Source: a virus (Duplodnaviria > Caudoviricetes). Taken from it: a stretch of DNA of 36,224 bases. The stretch's first letter is position 1; every line of letters starts with the position of its first letter. Location: positions 1-36,224 of IMG/VR virus record IMGVR_UViG_3300024038_000030; one strand, written 5' to 3'. This document shows, piece after piece, positions 1 through 28,224 of the stretch. Position numbers and translations under genes: made by a program. Under the pieces are notes generated by a model. It was given only the letters and a program-made list of their open reading frames with translations. It was not told where the DNA came from and made no database searches.

Positions 1-558
1 CTAATCCTCGAAATCGCCGAGACCCACATCACGCAGGCGCTGCTTGAGTTCTTCCAGCCCGCGCGACACCAGTTTCCTGGCCGCCTCGGCCGACGGGATG
101 CCGGCGAGATCGGCGATTTCCTGCAGTGAAAAGCCCTGCAGGTGCAAAGCGATCGGCAACCGGCGACGCTCGGGAATCTCGTCTAGGCACCGCTTGAGAC
201 CGTGCATCCGTTCCAAGTCGCCGGCGCGCCGATCCGGCGCAACCTGCGCCACGTCCAGATCGATCGCTCCTTCGTCTTCCTCCTCCGGCAGCGGCTCCGC
301 CGCCCGGACCTGGGCCCGTCGCAGGGCATCGATCACGGTGCTCGCAACGACCCGCTGCACATAAGACGCATGAAAGGCGCCGGACCGGTCACGCTCAAGC
401 GCATGCCACAGGCGGATGCGGACTTCCTGCTCGACATCGGCCGGGTCGATGCCGTGCTTGTCGAGGCCGTAGGTCGACAGCAGCGCCCGCACGCGGGCGC
501 CATAGGCGGCCAACAGCTCTTCGAGGCGGGCATGGATCGGATCGGAGGGGTTGGGCAT
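1..558 (-). CDS. ECF-family RNA polymerase sigma factor (host gene flanking prophage)
   Basis: Region-2-like 'ADVEQEVRIRLW...VIDALRR' and region-4 HTH 'LDEIPERRRLPIALHLQGFSLQEIADLAG...ARKLVSRG'; ATG 558 (MPNPSDP) preferred over the 705 ORF start. Confidence 0.85.
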   Translation of the reverse strand: MPNPSDPIHARLEELLAAYGARVRALLSTYGLDKHGIDPADVEQEVRIRLWHALERDRSGAFHASYVQRVVASTVIDALRRAQVRAAEPLPEEEDEGAIDLDVAQVAPDRRAGDLERMHGLKRCLDEIPERRRLPIALHLQGFSLQEIADLAGIPSAEAARKLVSRGLEELKQRLRDVGLGDFED

Positions 559-823
559 GACGGACGTGGACGAGCGGCCGGCTATGCTCCCCGACGGGGC
601 GCGCTGGCGCAACCGGAGCGCGACCGAGCGCGGAGCGAAAAATTGCCGGAAGCCATTTTTGACATCGCGCAAACGATGGCCCGAGGGTTGCCTGACGGGG
701 CACACGATATCTCTTCACAGGGATCGTTGATAACTGGGATATCGTGGGCAACCAAGGGAAGAAACGGGAACGAAAATTGAAAACCCGTTTCGTGGTGCAA
801 AAAACGGCGCTGAGCACCTGTTG

Positions 824-4764: not shown

Positions 4765-5295
4765 TTACGTCAACGCTTCCAACTCGGCATCGCCGACGAG
4801 CGCGTCGATCAGCTTGTCGATCTCGCCGTCCGCGGCCTTGATGACGACGGCGTCGACGTCGTCGGTGAGCGTCACGCCGACGCGCTTGAGGTCTTTCGCC
4901 GACAGGTTCGCGAGCGCCGCCTTGATCGGCACTTCGGTGGATTTGATGTAGGTGTCGGCGTCGTCGCCGAGCACGCGGCGCAGCGCCGCGACGCAGGCTT
5001 CGGCGTCGGAGATTTCCAGCTTCCCTTTTTGCTTCATCCAGCCGACGCGGATGCCGTGCAGCACGCGCGTCTTCGGCTTCTCGAACAGCACAGCGCTGGC
5101 TTCCAGCGACGCACGCAGCTCGCCGTGCGCGTCCTGCACGCGCGCCAGCGCGTTCTTGATGCCCTGCAGGCGGCGCCGCTTCGCGGCTTCCTGTTCCTCG
5201 CGCAGGGCGTTGAGGCGCTCGGCCAGCTCGGCGCGCGCGCCGGCGAAGACCTTCGCCTGGGATTCGATCGTTTCCATCGTGATGGTGTTGGACAT
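4765..5295 (-). CDS. gam: Gam-like host-nuclease inhibitor (DNA end-binding)
   Basis: N-terminal coiled coil then 'LFEKPKTRVLHGIRVGW', 'YIKSTEVPIKAAL', 'LKRVGV'; ATG 5295 with AGGA RBS. Confidence 0.7.
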   Translation of the reverse strand: MSNTITMETIESQAKVFAGARAELAERLNALREEQEAAKRRRLQGIKNALARVQDAHGELRASLEASAVLFEKPKTRVLHGIRVGWMKQKGKLEISDAEACVAALRRVLGDDADTYIKSTEVPIKAALANLSAKDLKRVGVTLTDDVDAVVIKAADGEIDKLIDALVGDAELEALT

Positions 5296-16456: not shown

Positions 16457-17010
16457 AGCGTCGACTCACCACGAGCGGTTTGATGTTCGCGGCTCTCTTG
16501 GTCGTGTCCATTGCAGTGTTTTTTTGGGCTCCGGCTATCCATTTCTCGGGGACACAGTGGCCTTTGTACGAGGCCCTCCGCACGACTGCCGCCATCATTT
16601 TTGCCGTTGTCGGAGCATGGATTGCCATCGCTTTCCCTGAGCGGCTGCGCCTGATGCCTGGCGGTGTGGATTCGAGGGCGGGTGTCAGCGAACGCTTTCT
16701 TGATCTGTTCGAGCCCGTCGTCCATTCAACGGTCACCCTGTGCGTGATCTTGTTAATTGGCGTAGTGGCGCCGATAGCGAAGGGGATGAATTTTTCGCCG
16801 CCCACGATGGCAATTCTTAGCCGCGCATCGTTCGCACTGTTGGTACTCTTGACGTTGTGGCAGGTGTGGACGGTAGTTCTCACGCTCCGGCCAGCGGATA
16901 TGCTCAAGTCGGCTATGGATCAGGATGTCTCCGCGGCCCGGTCACGCGATGCACTTCGAGGGCTTGGCTCCGTCGAGCAGCCTGAAAAGGATGATGCGGA
17001 CACCTTTTAG
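16453..17010 (+). CDS. Multi-pass (about 4 TM) membrane protein, moron
   Basis: Four hydrophobic segments; 'YEALRTTAAIIFAVVGAWIAIAFPERL'; atypical codon usage. Confidence 0.75.
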   Translation: MKRRLTTSGLMFAALLVVSIAVFFWAPAIHFSGTQWPLYEALRTTAAIIFAVVGAWIAIAFPERLRLMPGGVDSRAGVSERFLDLFEPVVHSTVTLCVILLIGVVAPIAKGMNFSPPTMAILSRASFALLVLLTLWQVWTVVLTLRPADMLKSAMDQDVSAARSRDALRGLGSVEQPEKDDADTF

Positions 17011-17050
17011 CGTCCGCTAAAAGACCGGCTGCCGTCCGTGCCGCGACGAT
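17004..17050 (+). promoter_or_regulatory. Putative activator-dependent late promoter (lysis operon)
   Basis: Palindrome CTTTTAGCG-tc-CGCTAAAAG (17004-17023); -10-like GACGAT 17045-17050; same element at 25605. Confidence 0.7.
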
Positions 17051-22354: not shown

Positions 22355-23821
22355 ATGAGCCTGCTCGAACGCCTCGTTTCGGTCTTCCGCCCGGCCGCGC
22401 CGCCGCCCGTCGAACAACCGCTGCGCGAAGCCGCCGGCGCGACGGTCGACGCCGACGACGACCAGTGGCGCCGCCTCACCGGCGACGGCAACCGCGACCT
22501 GGCGCCGATGACCCACATGCGCATGCAGAAGCTCGCGCATTTCCTGTGGGAATCGAACCTGCTCGCCAACCGTCTGGTCGAGCTGCCCGTCGCCTACCTG
22601 CTTTCGCAGGGCGTGAAGATCGTCATCGACGACGAGGACGCACAGGCCGCGCTCGATGCGCACTGGCGCGACGGCCTCAACGCGTGGAAGGCCAAGCTCC
22701 CCAAGCGCGTGCGCGAACTCGGCCTGTTCGGCGAGCAGTGCTATCCCGTGTTCCGCAACGAAACCACGGGCTTCGTGCGTGTGGGCTATCTCGACCCCGC
22801 GCTCATCGAAACCGTCGTGGTCGACCCGGACAACAGCGAGCAGCCGATCGGCATCGTCACGCGCAAGAACGCCAGGGGCGTCGCGCGGCGTTATCGCGTC
22901 ATCGTTAACGTGCCCGAAACCGCGTTCGGCGAGACGGCGCAGAAAATCCGCACGACATTCACGACCGGCGATTGCTTCTACTTCCGCGTCAACGACCTCT
23001 CCAGCGCCACGCGCGGCCGCAGCGACCTGCTCGCGCAGATGGACTGGCTCGATGCCTACGACACGTTCCTCTTCGGCGAGGTCGATCGCGCCGCGGCGCT
23101 GCGCGCCTACTTCTTCGACGTGACGCTCAACGGGGCCACGCCGGAGGAAGTGAACGAGCGCGCCCGCAAGATCACGCCGCCGCGGCCGGGCGGCGTGCGC
23201 GTCCACAACGAGAACGAAAACTGGAAGGCCGAGGCGCCGTCGCTCAACGCGTACGACGCCGCGCAAGCCGCGCGCCTCATCCGCAACCACATGCTCGGTG
23301 GCGCCACGGTGCCGGAGCACTGGTACGGCGGCGCCGAGGACGTGAACAAGTCCACCGGCAGCAGCATGACCGAGCCGACCGAGAAGATGCTCGACATGCG
23401 CCAGCAGGTCGTCGGCGACATGCTCGCCTGCGTCGGCGAATACGTCGTGCGCGCGCACTGGGGCGTGCTCGACGACGAGGTGCCAAAGGACAAGGCGGCG
23501 CTGCTCGCGACGCTGCACGTGGAATGGCCAGAGCTGACCGCGAAGGACACCACGAAGTACGCCTCGGCGCTGCAACAGATCACCGCGGCCGTGGCGCAGC
23601 TCATCGCCGAAGGGCTTCTGTCACGCGAAACGGCCTTGCGCATGGTGGCAGCGATGGCCGCGCGCCTGGGCGTGGAGTTCGACGTCGAAGACGAGCTGAA
23701 GACGGCGCAGGAAGAACTTGCCGAGCGTGGCGGCGACGACCTCGACGGCCTCAACCCGAACCCGCCGCCAAATGGCGCGCCGCCGCCGGCGCCCGCGCCG
23801 GCAGAAGAGGTCGCCGAGTAA
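22355..23821 (+). CDS. Portal protein
   Basis: 488 aa directly after TerL; 'RELGLFGEQ', 'RGRSDL', 'VPEHWYGG'. Confidence 0.8.
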   Translation: MSLLERLVSVFRPAAPPPVEQPLREAAGATVDADDDQWRRLTGDGNRDLAPMTHMRMQKLAHFLWESNLLANRLVELPVAYLLSQGVKIVIDDEDAQAALDAHWRDGLNAWKAKLPKRVRELGLFGEQCYPVFRNETTGFVRVGYLDPALIETVVVDPDNSEQPIGIVTRKNARGVARRYRVIVNVPETAFGETAQKIRTTFTTGDCFYFRVNDLSSATRGRSDLLAQMDWLDAYDTFLFGEVDRAAALRAYFFDVTLNGATPEEVNERARKITPPRPGGVRVHNENENWKAEAPSLNAYDAAQAARLIRNHMLGGATVPEHWYGGAEDVNKSTGSSMTEPTEKMLDMRQQVVGDMLACVGEYVVRAHWGVLDDEVPKDKAALLATLHVEWPELTAKDTTKYASALQQITAAVAQLIAEGLLSRETALRMVAAMAARLGVEFDVEDELKTAQEELAERGGDDLDGLNPNPPPNGAPPPAPAPAEEVAE

Positions 23822-23827
23822 AGCGCG

Positions 23828-25372
23828 GTGCCGGCCGCGCCGCTCCCGCCGATTCGCCGCGCGCTGATCGACGAGCTGCTGCGCCAGCTCGGCATCGCGC
23901 GCGAGCAGATCGAGGAATCCCTGCGCACCGCGACGAGCGCGGACGTTGCGCGTCGCCTTCAGCGGCAGCGCGCCGAAATCGACCGCGTGCTCGGCGTGTT
24001 CCGGGGCGATGCGACAGCCGCGGCGATCGCCGGCGCAGACCAGGCGTGGGCCGCGGGCGTCTCGCAAGCGTCGGCATCGGCCTTGCGCATCAACACGCGC
24101 GCGCTGCTCGCCGTGCGCAACATGCTCACCGACCGCATCAAGGACGTCTCGCAGCAGGCGATCCGCCAGATCAACACCGCGCTCACGCAGCACCTGCTCG
24201 GCGTGCGCACGCTCTCGCAGACGATCAGCGACATCCAGGCAATCCTCGACCACGCCCCGCGGCGCCGCGCGATGACGATCGCCTACACCGAGATCGGCCG
24301 CGCCTACAACGCCGCGCACTACGAGGCGCTGCTCGAACAGGCCAGGCGCATCCCCGGCCTCAAGAAGCGCTGGATACACAGCGGCAAGGCGCACGGTCGG
24401 CCGGGGCACATCCACGCCGCGCAGCAGGAGCCGATCCCGGTTGAAGAGCCGTTCGAGATCGTCGATCCGAAAACCGGCGAGGTCGAGCAGCTGCGCTTTC
24501 CGCTCGATCCGAACGCGAGCGCGAAGAACACCATCAACTGCGGCTGCATGATGGAATCGGTGCTGCCGAGCGTCGAGGACATCTTCGCCGGCCCCATCGG
24601 GCCGATCGTCCAGCCGGGCGATGGCACGCGCAACGGCGTGCCGTTGCCGAACCCCGCGCCTCCCGTGCCGGCGGCGAAGCCGGCAACGACACCACCCGCT
24701 GCGCCAAAGCCGCCGAACCCGTCGACGTCGAGCATCGACGACATCTTCGCCGGCCCCATCGGCCCGATCGTCCAACCCGGAACGATCGTGCGCAACGGCG
24801 TCGTCGTGCAGGAGCCGGCGGGCATGCTCGCCAATCACGCGCCGCCCGCCGCGTGGGAACGCGCCGGTGTGGGCGGCTTGAGCCAGGCGCTCGCCGACGC
24901 ACTGATCCAGCTCGAACGCGAACTGCCCACACGCGCGGTCGAATGGGCCTACCTGCTTGACGAAACGGGCGCCGTCCTGTGGTCGGCCGAAGGCACGCGC
25001 AAACTCGTGAGGCTCGAAGGATTGGCCGTTTCGGTGGCGCGCGGCGCAGTCCTCACGCACACCCACTTCGATGATGCGCTGCCGTCGATCTTCGACATCT
25101 TCGCCGCGGCCGGGCGCGAGTTCGCAGAGATGCGCGTGGCCGGGCCGAACGTGCGCCACCGGCTGCTGCCGCCCCTGTCCGGATGGAACCTCGCTGCGCT
25201 CTTGCGGCAGGAGCATGAATTGCGTGCCTACGCCCGCTCCCTGCGCGATGACCTGCGCAAAGCCGGGGCGCCGGAGTCGGAGTATGATCGCCGTATCCTG
25301 GCGGGCCTGATTGAAGAGCTGGTCCGCCGGGGCCTGATCCGCATCGAGACTTATCGCAACCCGACGCCATGA
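23828..25372 (+). CDS. MuF-type minor head protein with C-terminal JAB/JAMM-like domain
   Basis: MuF motifs 'RAMTIAYTE', 'KKRWIHSG..RPGH', 'LRFPLDP...NTINCGC'; Pro-rich linker; E372...H411-T-H413...S420-x2-D423. Confidence 0.85.
   Translation: MPAAPLPPIRRALIDELLRQLGIAREQIEESLRTATSADVARRLQRQRAEIDRVLGVFRGDATAAAIAGADQAWAAGVSQASASALRINTRALLAVRNMLTDRIKDVSQQAIRQINTALTQHLLGVRTLSQTISDIQAILDHAPRRRAMTIAYTEIGRAYNAAHYEALLEQARRIPGLKKRWIHSGKAHGRPGHIHAAQQEPIPVEEPFEIVDPKTGEVEQLRFPLDPNASAKNTINCGCMMESVLPSVEDIFAGPIGPIVQPGDGTRNGVPLPNPAPPVPAAKPATTPPAAPKPPNPSTSSIDDIFAGPIGPIVQPGTIVRNGVVVQEPAGMLANHAPPAAWERAGVGGLSQALADALIQLERELPTRAVEWAYLLDETGAVLWSAEGTRKLVRLEGLAVSVARGAVLTHTHFDDALPSIFDIFAAAGREFAEMRVAGPNVRHRLLPPLSGWNLAALLRQEHELRAYARSLRDDLRKAGAPESEYDRRILAGLIEELVRRGLIRIETYRNPTP
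24567..24801. repeat. Imperfect 73-bp in-frame direct repeat (24567-24639, 24729-24801)
   Basis: Identical 23-bp core gacatcttcgccggccccatcgg; encodes DIFAGPIGPIVQPG...RNGV twice. Confidence 0.9.
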
Positions 25373-25569
25373 CGCGCCACGTACTCAACCTGCAGCAGCT
25401 CGACGGTGCGTCCATCCAGCAATGGATGGATTCGCCGACGTCGACGCATGTTTCCATCGACGGCGTTACGCTGTCGGTCGAACAGGTCGAGGAGTTCGTG
25501 CGCATCGGAAAAGCCGAGGGCGGCGCCGCGCAGGAACGCTATCTCGATCGACTTCGGCCCGCCGCCTGA
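25369..25569 (+). CDS. Small protein coupled to MuF-JAB gene (candidate immunity/partner)
   Basis: ATGA overlap; followed by terminator. Confidence 0.6.
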   Translation: MTRHVLNLQQLDGASIQQWMDSPTSTHVSIDGVTLSVEQVEEFVRIGKAEGGAAQERYLDRLRPAA

Positions 25570-25582
25570 TCCACTCACTCCG

Positions 25583-25610
25583 AACCCCGCTCCGGCGGGG
25601 TTTTTCTTTT
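25583..25610 (+). terminator. Intrinsic terminator
   Basis: AACCCCGC-tccg-GCGGGGTT followed by T-rich run. Confidence 0.85.
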
Positions 25611-25651
25611 AGCGCCCGCTAAAAGACTGGCCGACACGGCCTTCGCATCAT
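25605..25651 (+). promoter_or_regulatory. Putative activator-dependent late promoter (head/tail operon)
   Basis: Palindrome TCTTTTAGCG-cc-CGCTAAAAGA (25605-25626); -10-like CATCAT 25646-25651. Confidence 0.7.
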
Positions 25652-25690: not shown

Positions 25691-25867
25691 ATGTCCAAGC
25701 CCAAGAAGGCAGCCGCGCAGCCTGGCGCGTCGGCCGATCAGAACGACAACGTCGAAACCGCTGCGGCCGAGTACGAGCCGGTCGGCGAAGTGCGCGTCAT
25801 TGCCGAAGGCAAGCACGCGCGCATCCTCGAGGACGATGTGCGCCGCTGGAAGGAGCCGCGCGAATGA
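25691..25867 (+). CDS. Small protein (58 aa, MSKPKKAAAQ...), absent from ORF track
   Basis: GGAGG RBS; open frame; ATGA coupling to capsid polyprotein. Confidence 0.7.
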   Translation: MSKPKKAAAQPGASADQNDNVETAAAEYEPVGEVRVIAEGKHARILEDDVRRWKEPRE

Positions 25868-28224
25868 AGCTGCGCGCGCTCGCCGCGGCGATCGCCGCCG
25901 CAGGCATCGTCGGCGAAACCGCCTTGCGCGAGGCGGCAGCCACCGAGCTTGGCCAGGTGGTCGATCTCGTGCGCGCTGCCGTGCGCGAAGCGCGACGCGT
26001 GACGTCGGACGGCTGGGATTTCTCCCTCGACTCCGTGTTCCCCGACCGCGCGATCGTCTTCGCGCAGGGCCGCTACTGGGCCTATCCGTACACCATCGGC
26101 GACGACAACCAGGTCACGCTCGGCACGCCGGGCGAAGTCATCGTCGATTTCGCACCTGTGGGGGCACGGGTGGCAGAGGCAGTCGCGGCGGGACAAAGCT
26201 CCCCCGCCGCGGCTGCCCATGCTTCCGTGTTCATCGAGGCCATCGCCGGCGCGGATGCTTCCGCGCCGCCGCGTTACCTGGTGCGCGTCATCAAGGCCGG
26301 CACGTCGCTCAACGGCGTGGACTATCCCGCCGCCGTGCTGCGCGAGGCCGTCGGCAAGTTCGACGGCACGCGCGTCTTCGTGAAGAACGACGACGCGCAC
26401 ATCAAGGGCGATCGCGCCGCAAAGGACTTTCGACAGCTCGTCGGCAAGCTCACCGAGCCGCGCTTCGTCGAAGCGTCCGGCGAAATCCAGGCGGTGCTCG
26501 ACGTGCTGGAGACCAGCGACGTCGCCGCAAAGCTGCGCGAGGCCGTCTCGCGCGGCATGACCGATCTCTTCGGCCTGTCGATCGACGCGACCGGCAGCGC
26601 GAAGAAGAAAGGCAAGTTCCGCGAGGCCACCAAGCTCGTGAAGGTCGACAGCGTCGACCTGATCATCGAGCCGGGTGCTGGCGGGCAAGTCATCCGTTTC
26701 ATTGAAGCTGCATCCACCCAGGAGTCCGACATGCTGCGTCAGCAGATGCTCAAGTTCATCGAAGCGCGCGACGCCGATCGCGCCAAGGCCCTCGCCGACG
26801 CCACGGACGAGGACGTCATGACCGCCTACCGCGAGGCCGTTGCGGCCGAATCGGCGGCGAACCCCAACAACTCGGCAGGCAGTGGTGGTGGAAACGGTGC
26901 CGGCGCGGGTGAGTCCGCGCCGGTTACCGCCGCCGACGTCGATGCGCGCATCCGCATGGTCGAGGCGCGTGCCAACGCGCGCGTCGCCATCGCCGGCAGC
27001 CGCTTGCCCGCGGCCGCGCAGGAGCGTCTCACGCAGCGCTTCGCGGAAGCGGCCAGCTTCACCGATGCAGACGTCACCGCGGCGATCACCGGCGAGCGCG
27101 AATACATCGGCCGCATGACCGAGGGCGCGCAGATCCGCGGGCTCGGCTCGATCGAGGCCGGCGAGGACCGCGCCGAGAAGGTCGACGCGATGCTCGACAA
27201 CTTCTTCGACCGCAGCAAGCCGGCGTCGAGTTTCCGTGAGGCGTACATCGAGATCACGGGCGACACGCGCGTGACCGGCCTGATCCAGAACTGCGACCTG
27301 CGCCGCCTGCGCGAAGCGGTCGGCGAGCAGCGCTTCGCCGAGGCCGTCAGCTCCACGACGTTCTCCAACATCCTGGGCGACTCGATCACCCGCGCAATGA
27401 TCCGCGACTACGGCTCGTCGGAGGCATACAGCGACTTCCGCTGGATGTGCGACGTCGTGCCGGTCAACGACTTCCGCGAGCAGAAGCGCGTGCGCATGGG
27501 CGGCTACGGCAACCTGCCGGCGGTCGCGGAAAACGGCGCGTACAACGCACTCACCACGCCAGGCGATGAAGCCGCCAAGTATTCGGCGACGAAGCGCGGC
27601 GGCACCGAGACGCTGTCGATCGAGACGATCGCGAACGACGACGTCGGCGTGATCCGCCGCATTCCGATGAGCCTGGCCACGGCCGCGGGTCGCACGCTGT
27701 ACGAGTTCGTCTACGACTTCCTGGCGACGAACCCGACCATCTACGACACCAAGGCGCTGTTCCACGCCACGCACAACAACACCGGCACCGCCGCGCTCGA
27801 CGCGACGTCCTTCGCCGCGGCGCGCCTGGCGATCAAGCAGCAGACCGAGCTGTCGAGCAACAAGCGCCTGGGCCTCACGTTGCGCCATCTGGTGATTCCG
27901 GCGGAGCTGGAGGAGACGGCCTTCAACCTGTTCGTGCGCAACACGAACAACGACGAGACCTTCGTCCAGTCGCGCAAGCCGACCGTGCACGTGGTCGACT
28001 ACTGGACCGACGTCAGCAACTGGTACGCGACGACGGACAACGCGCAGTGCCCGCTGATCGAGCTGGGCTTCTACGGCAGCGAGACGCCGGACCTGTTCGT
28101 GCAGGATCTGCCCACGCAGGGCTCGCTCTTCACGAACGACCAGATCAAGTACAAGATCCGGCACATCTACGGCGGCGCGGTGCGCGACTTCCGCGGCTTC
28201 TACGGCGCGATCGTCGCCGACTGA
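25864..28224 (+). CDS. Fused prohead protease-scaffold-major capsid protein (Mu gpT-like C-terminus)
   Basis: Protease-like 'GTSLNGVDYP..VL', 'GLSIDA', 'VDLIIEPGAGG'; capsid-like 'STTFSNIL', 'IANDDVG', 'LFHATHNN', 'LVIPAELE', 'YKIRHIYG...DFRG'. Confidence 0.88.
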   Translation: MKLRALAAAIAAAGIVGETALREAAATELGQVVDLVRAAVREARRVTSDGWDFSLDSVFPDRAIVFAQGRYWAYPYTIGDDNQVTLGTPGEVIVDFAPVGARVAEAVAAGQSSPAAAAHASVFIEAIAGADASAPPRYLVRVIKAGTSLNGVDYPAAVLREAVGKFDGTRVFVKNDDAHIKGDRAAKDFRQLVGKLTEPRFVEASGEIQAVLDVLETSDVAAKLREAVSRGMTDLFGLSIDATGSAKKKGKFREATKLVKVDSVDLIIEPGAGGQVIRFIEAASTQESDMLRQQMLKFIEARDADRAKALADATDEDVMTAYREAVAAESAANPNNSAGSGGGNGAGAGESAPVTAADVDARIRMVEARANARVAIAGSRLPAAAQERLTQRFAEAASFTDADVTAAITGEREYIGRMTEGAQIRGLGSIEAGEDRAEKVDAMLDNFFDRSKPASSFREAYIEITGDTRVTGLIQNCDLRRLREAVGEQRFAEAVSSTTFSNILGDSITRAMIRDYGSSEAYSDFRWMCDVVPVNDFREQKRVRMGGYGNLPAVAENGAYNALTTPGDEAAKYSATKRGGTETLSIETIANDDVGVIRRIPMSLATAAGRTLYEFVYDFLATNPTIYDTKALFHATHNNTGTAALDATSFAAARLAIKQQTELSSNKRLGLTLRHLVIPAELEETAFNLFVRNTNNDETFVQSRKPTVHVVDYWTDVSNWYATTDNAQCPLIELGFYGSETPDLFVQDLPTQGSLFTNDQIKYKIRHIYGGAVRDFRGFYGAIVAD

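Follow-up and report, generated by a model that had tools for sequence, protein, structure and literature searches.

What does a phage gain from a head protein with an enzyme-like tip, and why is the gene for that protein overlapped by a very small one? The question is raised by a 36,224-nucleotide stretch of DNA from a virus of the Caudoviricetes (IMG/VR record IMGVR_UViG_3300024038_000030; hereafter the window). The gene after the portal gene encodes a 514-residue protein with an N-terminal MuF domain and a C-terminal domain bearing a JAB/JAMM-like motif, and an open reading frame (ORF) for 66 amino acids follows. An earlier note on this DNA, made from its letters, had proposed a packaged enzyme, acting either as a toxin with the 66-residue protein as its immunity protein or as an anti-defence isopeptidase. 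We find that the C-terminal domain is a predicted JAB-type zinc hydrolase, that it travels with its small partner as a cassette, and that the two are probably a MuF polymorphic toxin and its cognate immunity protein.

The C-terminal domain has a conserved motif and a predicted JAB/MPN fold

An exhaustive phmmer search with residues 340–514 returned 59 proteins at E ≤ 0.001 (a word-indexed protein search returned the query itself only). In the resulting alignment of 60 rows, query included, the residues that the earlier note had read as a JAMM motif stand where it placed them and are kept in 57–60 rows: E372 in 58, H411 and H413 in 59 each, S420 in 57 and D423 in 60. Conservation of these five residues across the 60 rows puts the motif beyond chance, and E363 (56 rows), T410 (60), E434 (57), R436 (59) and W453 (55) are conserved with them. 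The canonical JAMM spacing is seven residues. We considered the six-residue spacing of the window domain as a sign of decay and rejected this, because HxH-x6-S-x2-D is the family norm (48 of 60 rows). P0020, an apparently spurious hit without the motif, was left out of a Pfam scan; of the other 58, 15 matched the MuF superfamily at E ≤ 0.01 and 11 of these exceeded the curated cut-off.

An AlphaFold2 model of residues 340–514, built on a 36-sequence alignment, had a predicted local distance difference test score (pLDDT) of 93.5 and a predicted template-modelling score of 0.86. Its best whole-domain match among 48,161 solved chains was PfJAMM1 (Z 9.2, root-mean-square deviation 3.4, 108 residues aligned), followed by an Rpn11 homologue (Z 8.4), Cap3 (8.3), AfJAMM (7.3), Sst2 (7.1), RadC (7.0) and a bacterial deubiquitinase of ubiquitin-like proteins (Ubls; 6.7–6.9). 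These ranks are interleaved with short helical matches to a two-helix insertion, and a Z of 9.2 is modest, yet JAB/MPN entries occupy the whole-domain ranks, and the model has the fold of the JAB/MPN+ superfamily that the earlier note had expected. Foldseek against the PDB placed RadC first (E 0.013) and PfJAMM1 second (E 0.023), both weak E-values. Predicted viral structures labelled as minor capsid or uncharacterised phage proteins matched at E down to 5e-10, and ESM Atlas clusters with MuF, Phage_min_cap2, portal or VG15 domains at template-modelling scores of 0.71–0.78 to the domain. JAB/MPN+ domains have their glutamate on strand 1, HxH where strand 3 ends, and serine and aspartate in the helix after it (PMC3239186). 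In the model, elements E34–38, E69–73 and H82–91 carry or flank the catalytic residues in this order, a topology from which a zinc site is predicted; by fold and motif together we predict a JAB-type zinc hydrolase. The model also has weaker structural matches in BFVD (E 1e-5 to 1e-3). They are uncharacterised proteins encoded by large DNA viruses of eukaryotes and agree with the mention by Zhang et al. of JAB versions in viruses (PMC3482391).

No informative profile came out of Pfam, PHROGs, NCBIfam or PADLOC scans of the domain and its 66-residue partner. The RadC model PF04002 did not hit the window domain; the best E was 0.11, in 2 of 36 members, and its cut-off was exceeded only by proteins with tandem copies of the domain. 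Tox-JAB-2/DUF4329 did not match the window domain and was not in the list of families matched by the 36 members, which showed 25 of 30; an ESM Atlas feature score of 0.80 for this family is a lead only. A PDB sequence search with the domain, which returned designed Pizza repeats only, was discarded. Tandem JAB copies occur in P0019 (four), P0035 (three) and P0022 (two), and P0014, P0052 and L041/L042 are also multi-copy; some of these multi-copy proteins bear MuF or ADP-ribosyltransferase domains as well, as polyvalent-type virion proteins.

Domain and partner move together between MuF lineages

The N-terminal part of the 514-residue protein matches PF04233 over residues 114–241 (35.2 bits against a cut-off of 29.6, E 2.4e-8) and phrog_2468, head morphogenesis (E 5e-32). 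The NTINCGC with which the earlier note had ended the MuF domain is found at residues 234–240, and the proline-rich, duplicated linker that it had described is a 52-nucleotide repeat whose two copies are 90% identical and 162 nucleotides apart. The GTG start of the ORF agrees with its relatives, whose alignments begin at residue 1.

A search with the MuF part found seven viral loci, six of which (L001–L006, five distinct proteins) reach the end of the gene. These MuF proteins are 54–59% identical to that of the window, end soon after NCGC and have neither the JAB domain nor the partner, in phages whose portal and capsid proteins are 66–72% and 66–73% identical to those of the window. Other inserts occupy the slot after MuF in L001, L003 and L004. 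In L001 the slot is filled by a 151-residue ORF (4822–5277) with an HAE motif, a later cysteine and a deaminase-like look; it had no informative Pfam or PDB sequence match and is possibly another effector. In L003 (4801–5250), the short MuF gene is followed by a diverged duplicate of its C-terminal half, which is further evidence of recombination at this slot.

The nearest relatives of the domain, in L008 (64% identical) and L010/L011/L013 (58%), are each followed by a homologue of the 66-residue protein (the identities found are 60% and 48%) of the same length and with the same overlap. In a MuF tree of 12 rows, of which L008 fills only 23% of columns, the window MuF clusters with five short MuFs (support 100/100), and a single clade of the three cassette-bearing MuFs is rejected (approximately unbiased test, p 2.4e-6). 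The same domain and partner therefore sit on another MuF lineage, and the pair travels as a cassette on two of them. Beyond the window MuF clade, P0008 and P0029 bear more distant versions of the domain. The relatives thus differ in their C-termini and downstream ORFs, by short forms, other inserts and a lineage swap, and homologues of the 66-residue ORF lie behind the window subclade of domains and are absent from the short MuF relatives, both as the earlier note had anticipated. A variable C-terminal extension and a co-varying small downstream ORF are features of MuF polymorphic toxins.

The linker repeat resembles the tails of short MuF proteins. With the best copy for each tail, none of 2,000 shuffles scored as high against L002 (copy 1) or L005 (copy 2); the likeness is weaker for L006 (9 of 2,000) and L008 (31 of 2,000), and the shuffle test gave no alignment with the L010 and L012 tails. 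The repeat is probably a scar left when the cassette was appended to a short MuF gene. An apparent third copy around the codons for S420 and D423 (76% over 29 nucleotides) was treated as coincidence, since the motif is present in L008 and L010, which do not have the linker repeat.

The small partner begins within an ATGA overlap, the translational coupling that had been proposed for it. Its family forms three clusters among 5.8 billion proteins; all three sequence types occur behind JAB domains of the window subclade, and the viral loci are the same contigs as those of the domain relatives. Q10-L11-D12 is invariant in the three partner homologues. Differences are most frequent at third codon positions in the domain and the partner alike; the effect is clear in the former and only mild in the latter. 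A model of the partner from three sequences had a pLDDT of 75.6 and no fold match (best Z 3.9), which is no proof of a new fold, and its ESM Atlas matches were at chance level.

Small downstream ORFs accompany the wider family

A strict scan of IMG/VR with HNHP-x4-FS-x2-D found at least 121 loci (about 370 estimated). The 80 with wide flanks held 83 motif matches, 82 of which scored with the family profile. Clustering at 70% identity reduced the 68 of these 82 that were C-terminal and had their stop in view to 53. Behind these 53 C-terminal members the next ORF was shorter than 150 residues in 47, large in three and missing in three, and in 29 the small ORF overlapped the domain gene by −1, −4 or −8. 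Among 43 other long genes of the same loci, used as a control, 10 had a small downstream ORF and two were coupled to it. The family-wide rate resembles that of MuF toxins as given by Jamet et al., who list a small downstream ORF for 89.4% of MuF toxins versus 25.5% of short MuFs (PMC5576092).

The partners belong to several unrelated families that track the domain: their labels change 19 times on the domain tree, against 32.7 times when shuffled, and none of 200 shuffles was as low. The commonest is a Cys-rich family with 13 members, about 56–130 residues long with a CxxC...C motif, and likely zinc-binding on that motif; it stands behind the domain in L030, L036, L045, L055, L056, L062, L065, L070, L083, L099 and L102. 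Of 50 partners, 37 have a hydrophobic-aspartate pair, [LIMF]D, within residues 1–20, where shuffles gave 16.7 on average and 27 at most; control N-termini have it in 8 of 34 (7.1 expected from shuffles). The motif was picked post hoc, after inspection of the data. Net charge is negative in 31 of the 50 partners. The family loci span 31–69% guanine plus cytosine (GC).

A tblastn search with five queries of 50,697 cultured-phage records yielded four distinct records. ORF044 of cyanophage CL131 is a family member (hhalign probability 99.9), and its best hit in the CL131 table is Methanosarcina (PMC6293099). It is also among the 23 proteins of the purified virion, with 9 peptides and 46% coverage (PMC6293099, Table S5). 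By eye, ORF044 and ORF045 of CL131 (L019, 3881–5915) share a basic Cys-rich stretch, KCKK...CG..C.P....C, which is possibly a shared packaging tag. The cultured Dorea phage DO134P1 has the family domain on the head protein encoded after its portal gene, and a small ORF of 46 residues goes with it.

A probable toxin with its immunity protein

We consider the window pair to be probably a MuF polymorphic toxin and its cognate 66-residue immunity protein. Enzyme and inhibitor would be co-translated late, and only late, in the producing cell, where the 66-residue protein would bind and block the enzyme. Through its MuF part the protein would be carried in the phage head at one to three copies, the number reported for MuF proteins. 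The predicted hydrolase would accompany the DNA into the next cell and damage a universal target in its cytoplasm. At so few copies, the effect may be growth arrest or a lysis/lysogeny bias rather than killing, and such a bias has been proposed for MuF toxins by Jamet et al. (PMC5576092). The packaging proposed by the earlier note is supported indirectly, through a family member, CL131 ORF044; for the window protein it would follow by analogy with that protein and with SPP1 gp7.

The presence of the family in a cyanophage and a Dorea phage, the Methanosarcina hit and the GC range favour a universal target, an argument made before for RadC and Tox-JAB domains (PMC5512222, PMC3482391, PMC3239186). 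If the domain is a toxin, we narrowly favour a nucleic acid or nucleotide over a protein amide bond as its substrate. Inhibition would likely come about through a short strand of the partner that plugs the active site and, more speculatively, brings the aspartate of L11-D12 to the position of the zinc's water. An aspartate plug of this kind has its analogy in metalloprotease inhibitors. It is a good deal more doubtful that this large, unnamed, virion-delivered clade as a whole attacks a target universal to bacteria and archaea by hydrolysis of nucleic acid or nucleotide, a chemistry that no JAB is known to have, while many unrelated immunity proteins of 30–130 residues converge on a hydrophobic-aspartate zinc plug; were this so, it would provide the first directly assayable case of a non-peptidase JAB activity, which has long been predicted.

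Several observations weigh against the toxin–immunity interpretation or against its nuclease form. CL131 ORF044, the sole member with virion evidence, is a standalone domain followed by a gene for a 453-residue virion protein and by no small ORF, an arrangement that argues against a general need for immunity. In the survey, no small ORF follows six of the 53 members, the starts of some partners may have been called wrongly, only 27 of the 53 score with a MuF1-type profile, and only 80 of the at least 121 loci had flanks wide enough. The window subclade does not carry the survey motif; N412, P414, F419, H492 and Y506 set it apart from the family, and it may therefore differ in activity. The domain tree is a quick one with 26 of 53 branches unresolved, the largest partner family requires seven changes on it, and the clustering of partner labels is a sign of linkage and no proof of binding. 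The JAB domains have a median net charge of −1 and are not basic, and Ubl peptidases outrank RadC structurally (9.2 versus 7.0); both weaken the nuclease reading. A scan of the region for sigma-70-like promoters found none, which leaves the supply of immunity in lysogens without a promoter, and we found no measured toxicity, catalysis, delivery or binding for the JAB family in the literature consulted.

The other branch of the earlier proposal, a packaged isopeptidase that strips Cap2-made conjugates of CD-NTases (cGAS/DncV-like nucleotidyltransferases) or Bil-type Ubl conjugates, with the partner as a regulator or specificity factor, we regard as unlikely. The top structural matches are indeed Ubl peptidases, an optional domain suits an arms race, deconjugation by Cap3 lowers the response of the cyclic-oligonucleotide-based defence CBASS according to a review (PMC10419184), and a preprint on Bil speculates that deubiquitinase domains of phage tail proteins counter that system (bioRxiv 2023.09.04.556158). 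However, Bil as described in the same preprint targets the tail fibre during assembly, whereas the domain here is on a head protein, and Bil's own deubiquitinase is essential for its defence. Prok-JAB (PF14464) matched none of 36 members and PADLOC none of the window proteins, and in the argument of Zhang et al. Ubl conjugation is missing from most hosts of toxin JABs (PMC3482391). A clade-specific small partner, as in 47 of 53 members, suits self-protection better; because a dedicated and variable partner is hard to explain for an enzyme acting on host conjugates only, this branch is left with little support.

It is similarly improbable that the domain is a virion-processing peptidase, trimming its own linker or head and ejection proteins while the partner inhibits it until assembly. 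The peptidase-like fold, the place of the gene in the head module and the virion protein CL131 ORF044, which has no small partner, would all fit. Yet the nearest phages manage without the domain, the capsid gene has matches of its own to head-maturation protease families, and swapping between MuF lineages is atypical of a core assembly enzyme. We give about as little weight to a non-toxic packaged helper that acts on nucleic acids or nucleotide signals (in DNA processing, anti-restriction or signal degradation) and has the small ORF as an accessory. Iyer et al. proposed that the RadC domains of phage polyvalent proteins process nucleic acids or nucleotides (PMC5512222), and the tandem copies and large multi-domain proteins of the family would suit such a role, but it leaves varied and often acidic small ORFs that track the domain tree unexplained. 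A toxin with its immunity protein accounts for these ORFs as self-protection and remains the reading we prefer.

Locus layout and phage context

The features of the locus are collected in Table 1. An N-terminal MuF domain in the gene after the portal is, like the features above, typical of MuF polymorphic toxins. The terminator that the earlier note had placed after the 66-residue ORF is borne out as a terminator-like stem with a T run: 25570–25630 folds as two hairpins (z −4.96), while the overall count of a terminator scanner (6, versus 4.9 in shuffles) is not above chance. Contigs of two runs (X1, which is possibly the source, and X5) are letter-for-letter identical to the region wherever they cover it. 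A metatranscriptome contig over 24934–25686 was not used, as contigs cannot show transcription.

Table 1. Features of the MuF-JAB locus, in window coordinates
Feature	Position	Strand	Remarks
MuF-JAB gene, 514 aa	23828..25372	+	Directly after portal gene (22355-23821)
MuF domain core, PF04233, aa 114-241, ends NTINCGC	24167..24550	+	
Linker repeat, copy 1	24567..24618	+	Resembles C-terminal tail of short MuF relatives
Linker repeat, copy 2	24729..24780	+	Resembles short-MuF tail; likely recombination scar
Predicted JAB/MPN-fold domain, aa 340-514	24845..25369	+	Two-helix insertion, model helices ~aa 455-478 and 483-500
E372, predicted catalytic glutamate, strand 1	24941..24943	+	Kept 58/60; role by JAB analogy (PMC3239186)
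H411-x-H413-x6-S420-x2-D423, predicted zinc site	25058..25096	+	
66-aa partner ORF, candidate immunity protein	25369..25569	+	ATGA overlap with MuF-JAB stop
Intrinsic-terminator-like hairpin (stem 25582-25603) plus T run	25582..25611	+	
Dyad, likely late-activator site of capsid operon (presumably Mor/C)	25607..25625	+	Repeated at 17005; putative function

The window is a temperate Mu-like phage, with PHROGs matches to a transposase, a transposition protein, a Gam-like protein, repressors and a late activator (gene at 1949–2509). Temperate phages are where MuF toxins are expected (PMC5576092). A 19-nucleotide dyad stands before the lysis and packaging genes (17005–17023) and again before the capsid operon (25607–25625), and at the equivalent place in six of eight related loci (L001 5395, L002 1989, L003 5319, L004 5222, L005 5034 and L010 5806). 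The dyads are likely binding sites of the late activator, which we take to be of the Mor/C type. Given a dyad upstream of both modules and the activator gene, a single late transcript probably has the MuF-JAB gene and its partner as its last genes. A match in a genome contig (L014), to a protein resembling a carboxylase, was rejected as spurious, and the search thus gave no host genome. Downstream, one gene of 786 residues (25864–28224) is a fused head gene, with matches to head-maturation protease as well as major capsid families, and a gene for a sigma-70-type factor (1–705, minus strand) lies in the phage or its flank.

Comparison with known systems

The window domain resembles RadC (PF04002; 2qlc) in its JAB fold, in E...HxH...S-x2-D, in the family consensus HNHP and in being matched to it at the top of the Foldseek PDB list; a nucleic-acid activity is predicted for RadC too (PMC5512222). 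It differs in its six-residue spacing, its conserved E-x-R and W, its long two-helix insertion and single domains that fall below the Pfam cut-off. Tox-JAB-1 and Tox-JAB-2/DUF4329 are likewise JAB toxin tips with an immunity gene and are predicted nucleases, but the carriers described for them are RHS, type II, VI and VII secretion and TcdB/TcaC proteins with Imm65 or Imm-NTF2-2, not MuF (PMC3482391). With the Ubl JAMM peptidases PfJAMM1 (5ld9), Cap3 (9ild) and the bacterial Ubl deubiquitinase (8tyy), the domain shares the same five catalytic residues (Z 9.2, 8.3 and 6.9); these enzymes differ in being only 11–14% identical to it, in lying in Ubl or CD-NTase operons and in having no inhibitor gene and no aligned helical insertion.

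Action of RadC and toxin JABs on nucleic acids rather than Ubl tails was proposed in 2011–2012 (PMC3239186, PMC3482391), and we found no test of this proposal in the searchable literature. A single domain of 175 residues with intact catalytic residues and a 66-residue partner would be a convenient system in which to settle the substrate question. The results also assign a predicted fold and a likely role to a common MuF extension otherwise labelled as unknown (the strict motif alone is estimated at about 370 IMG/VR stretches), and they point to a possible inhibition motif shared by unrelated small phage proteins.

Five MuF+RadC toxins (PF04002, 'putative nuclease') appear in Tables S5 and S7 of Jamet et al. 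2017 (PMC5576092), so the architecture itself was already known, and Apk2/IapK is a tested example of a MuF toxin (PMC12226406). Our search of open-access papers found no account of the JAB clade, its partners or any activity, although the architecture lists of PMC5512222 may include MuF fused to this clade; its sequences place the tip in a widespread and as yet unnamed JAB clade, in which the genomic signs of cognate immunity are strong. In Jamet et al. we found no characterisation of the partners of JAB-type MuFs. The window domain departs from the tabulated MuF+RadC toxins in that it matches no Pfam JAB model and is known here from its sequence and model. Like MuF polymorphic toxins in general, the window protein has a MuF1 N-terminus encoded after the portal gene, a variable C-terminal enzyme domain, a small ORF behind it, a temperate phage as its carrier and short relatives that do without the tip.

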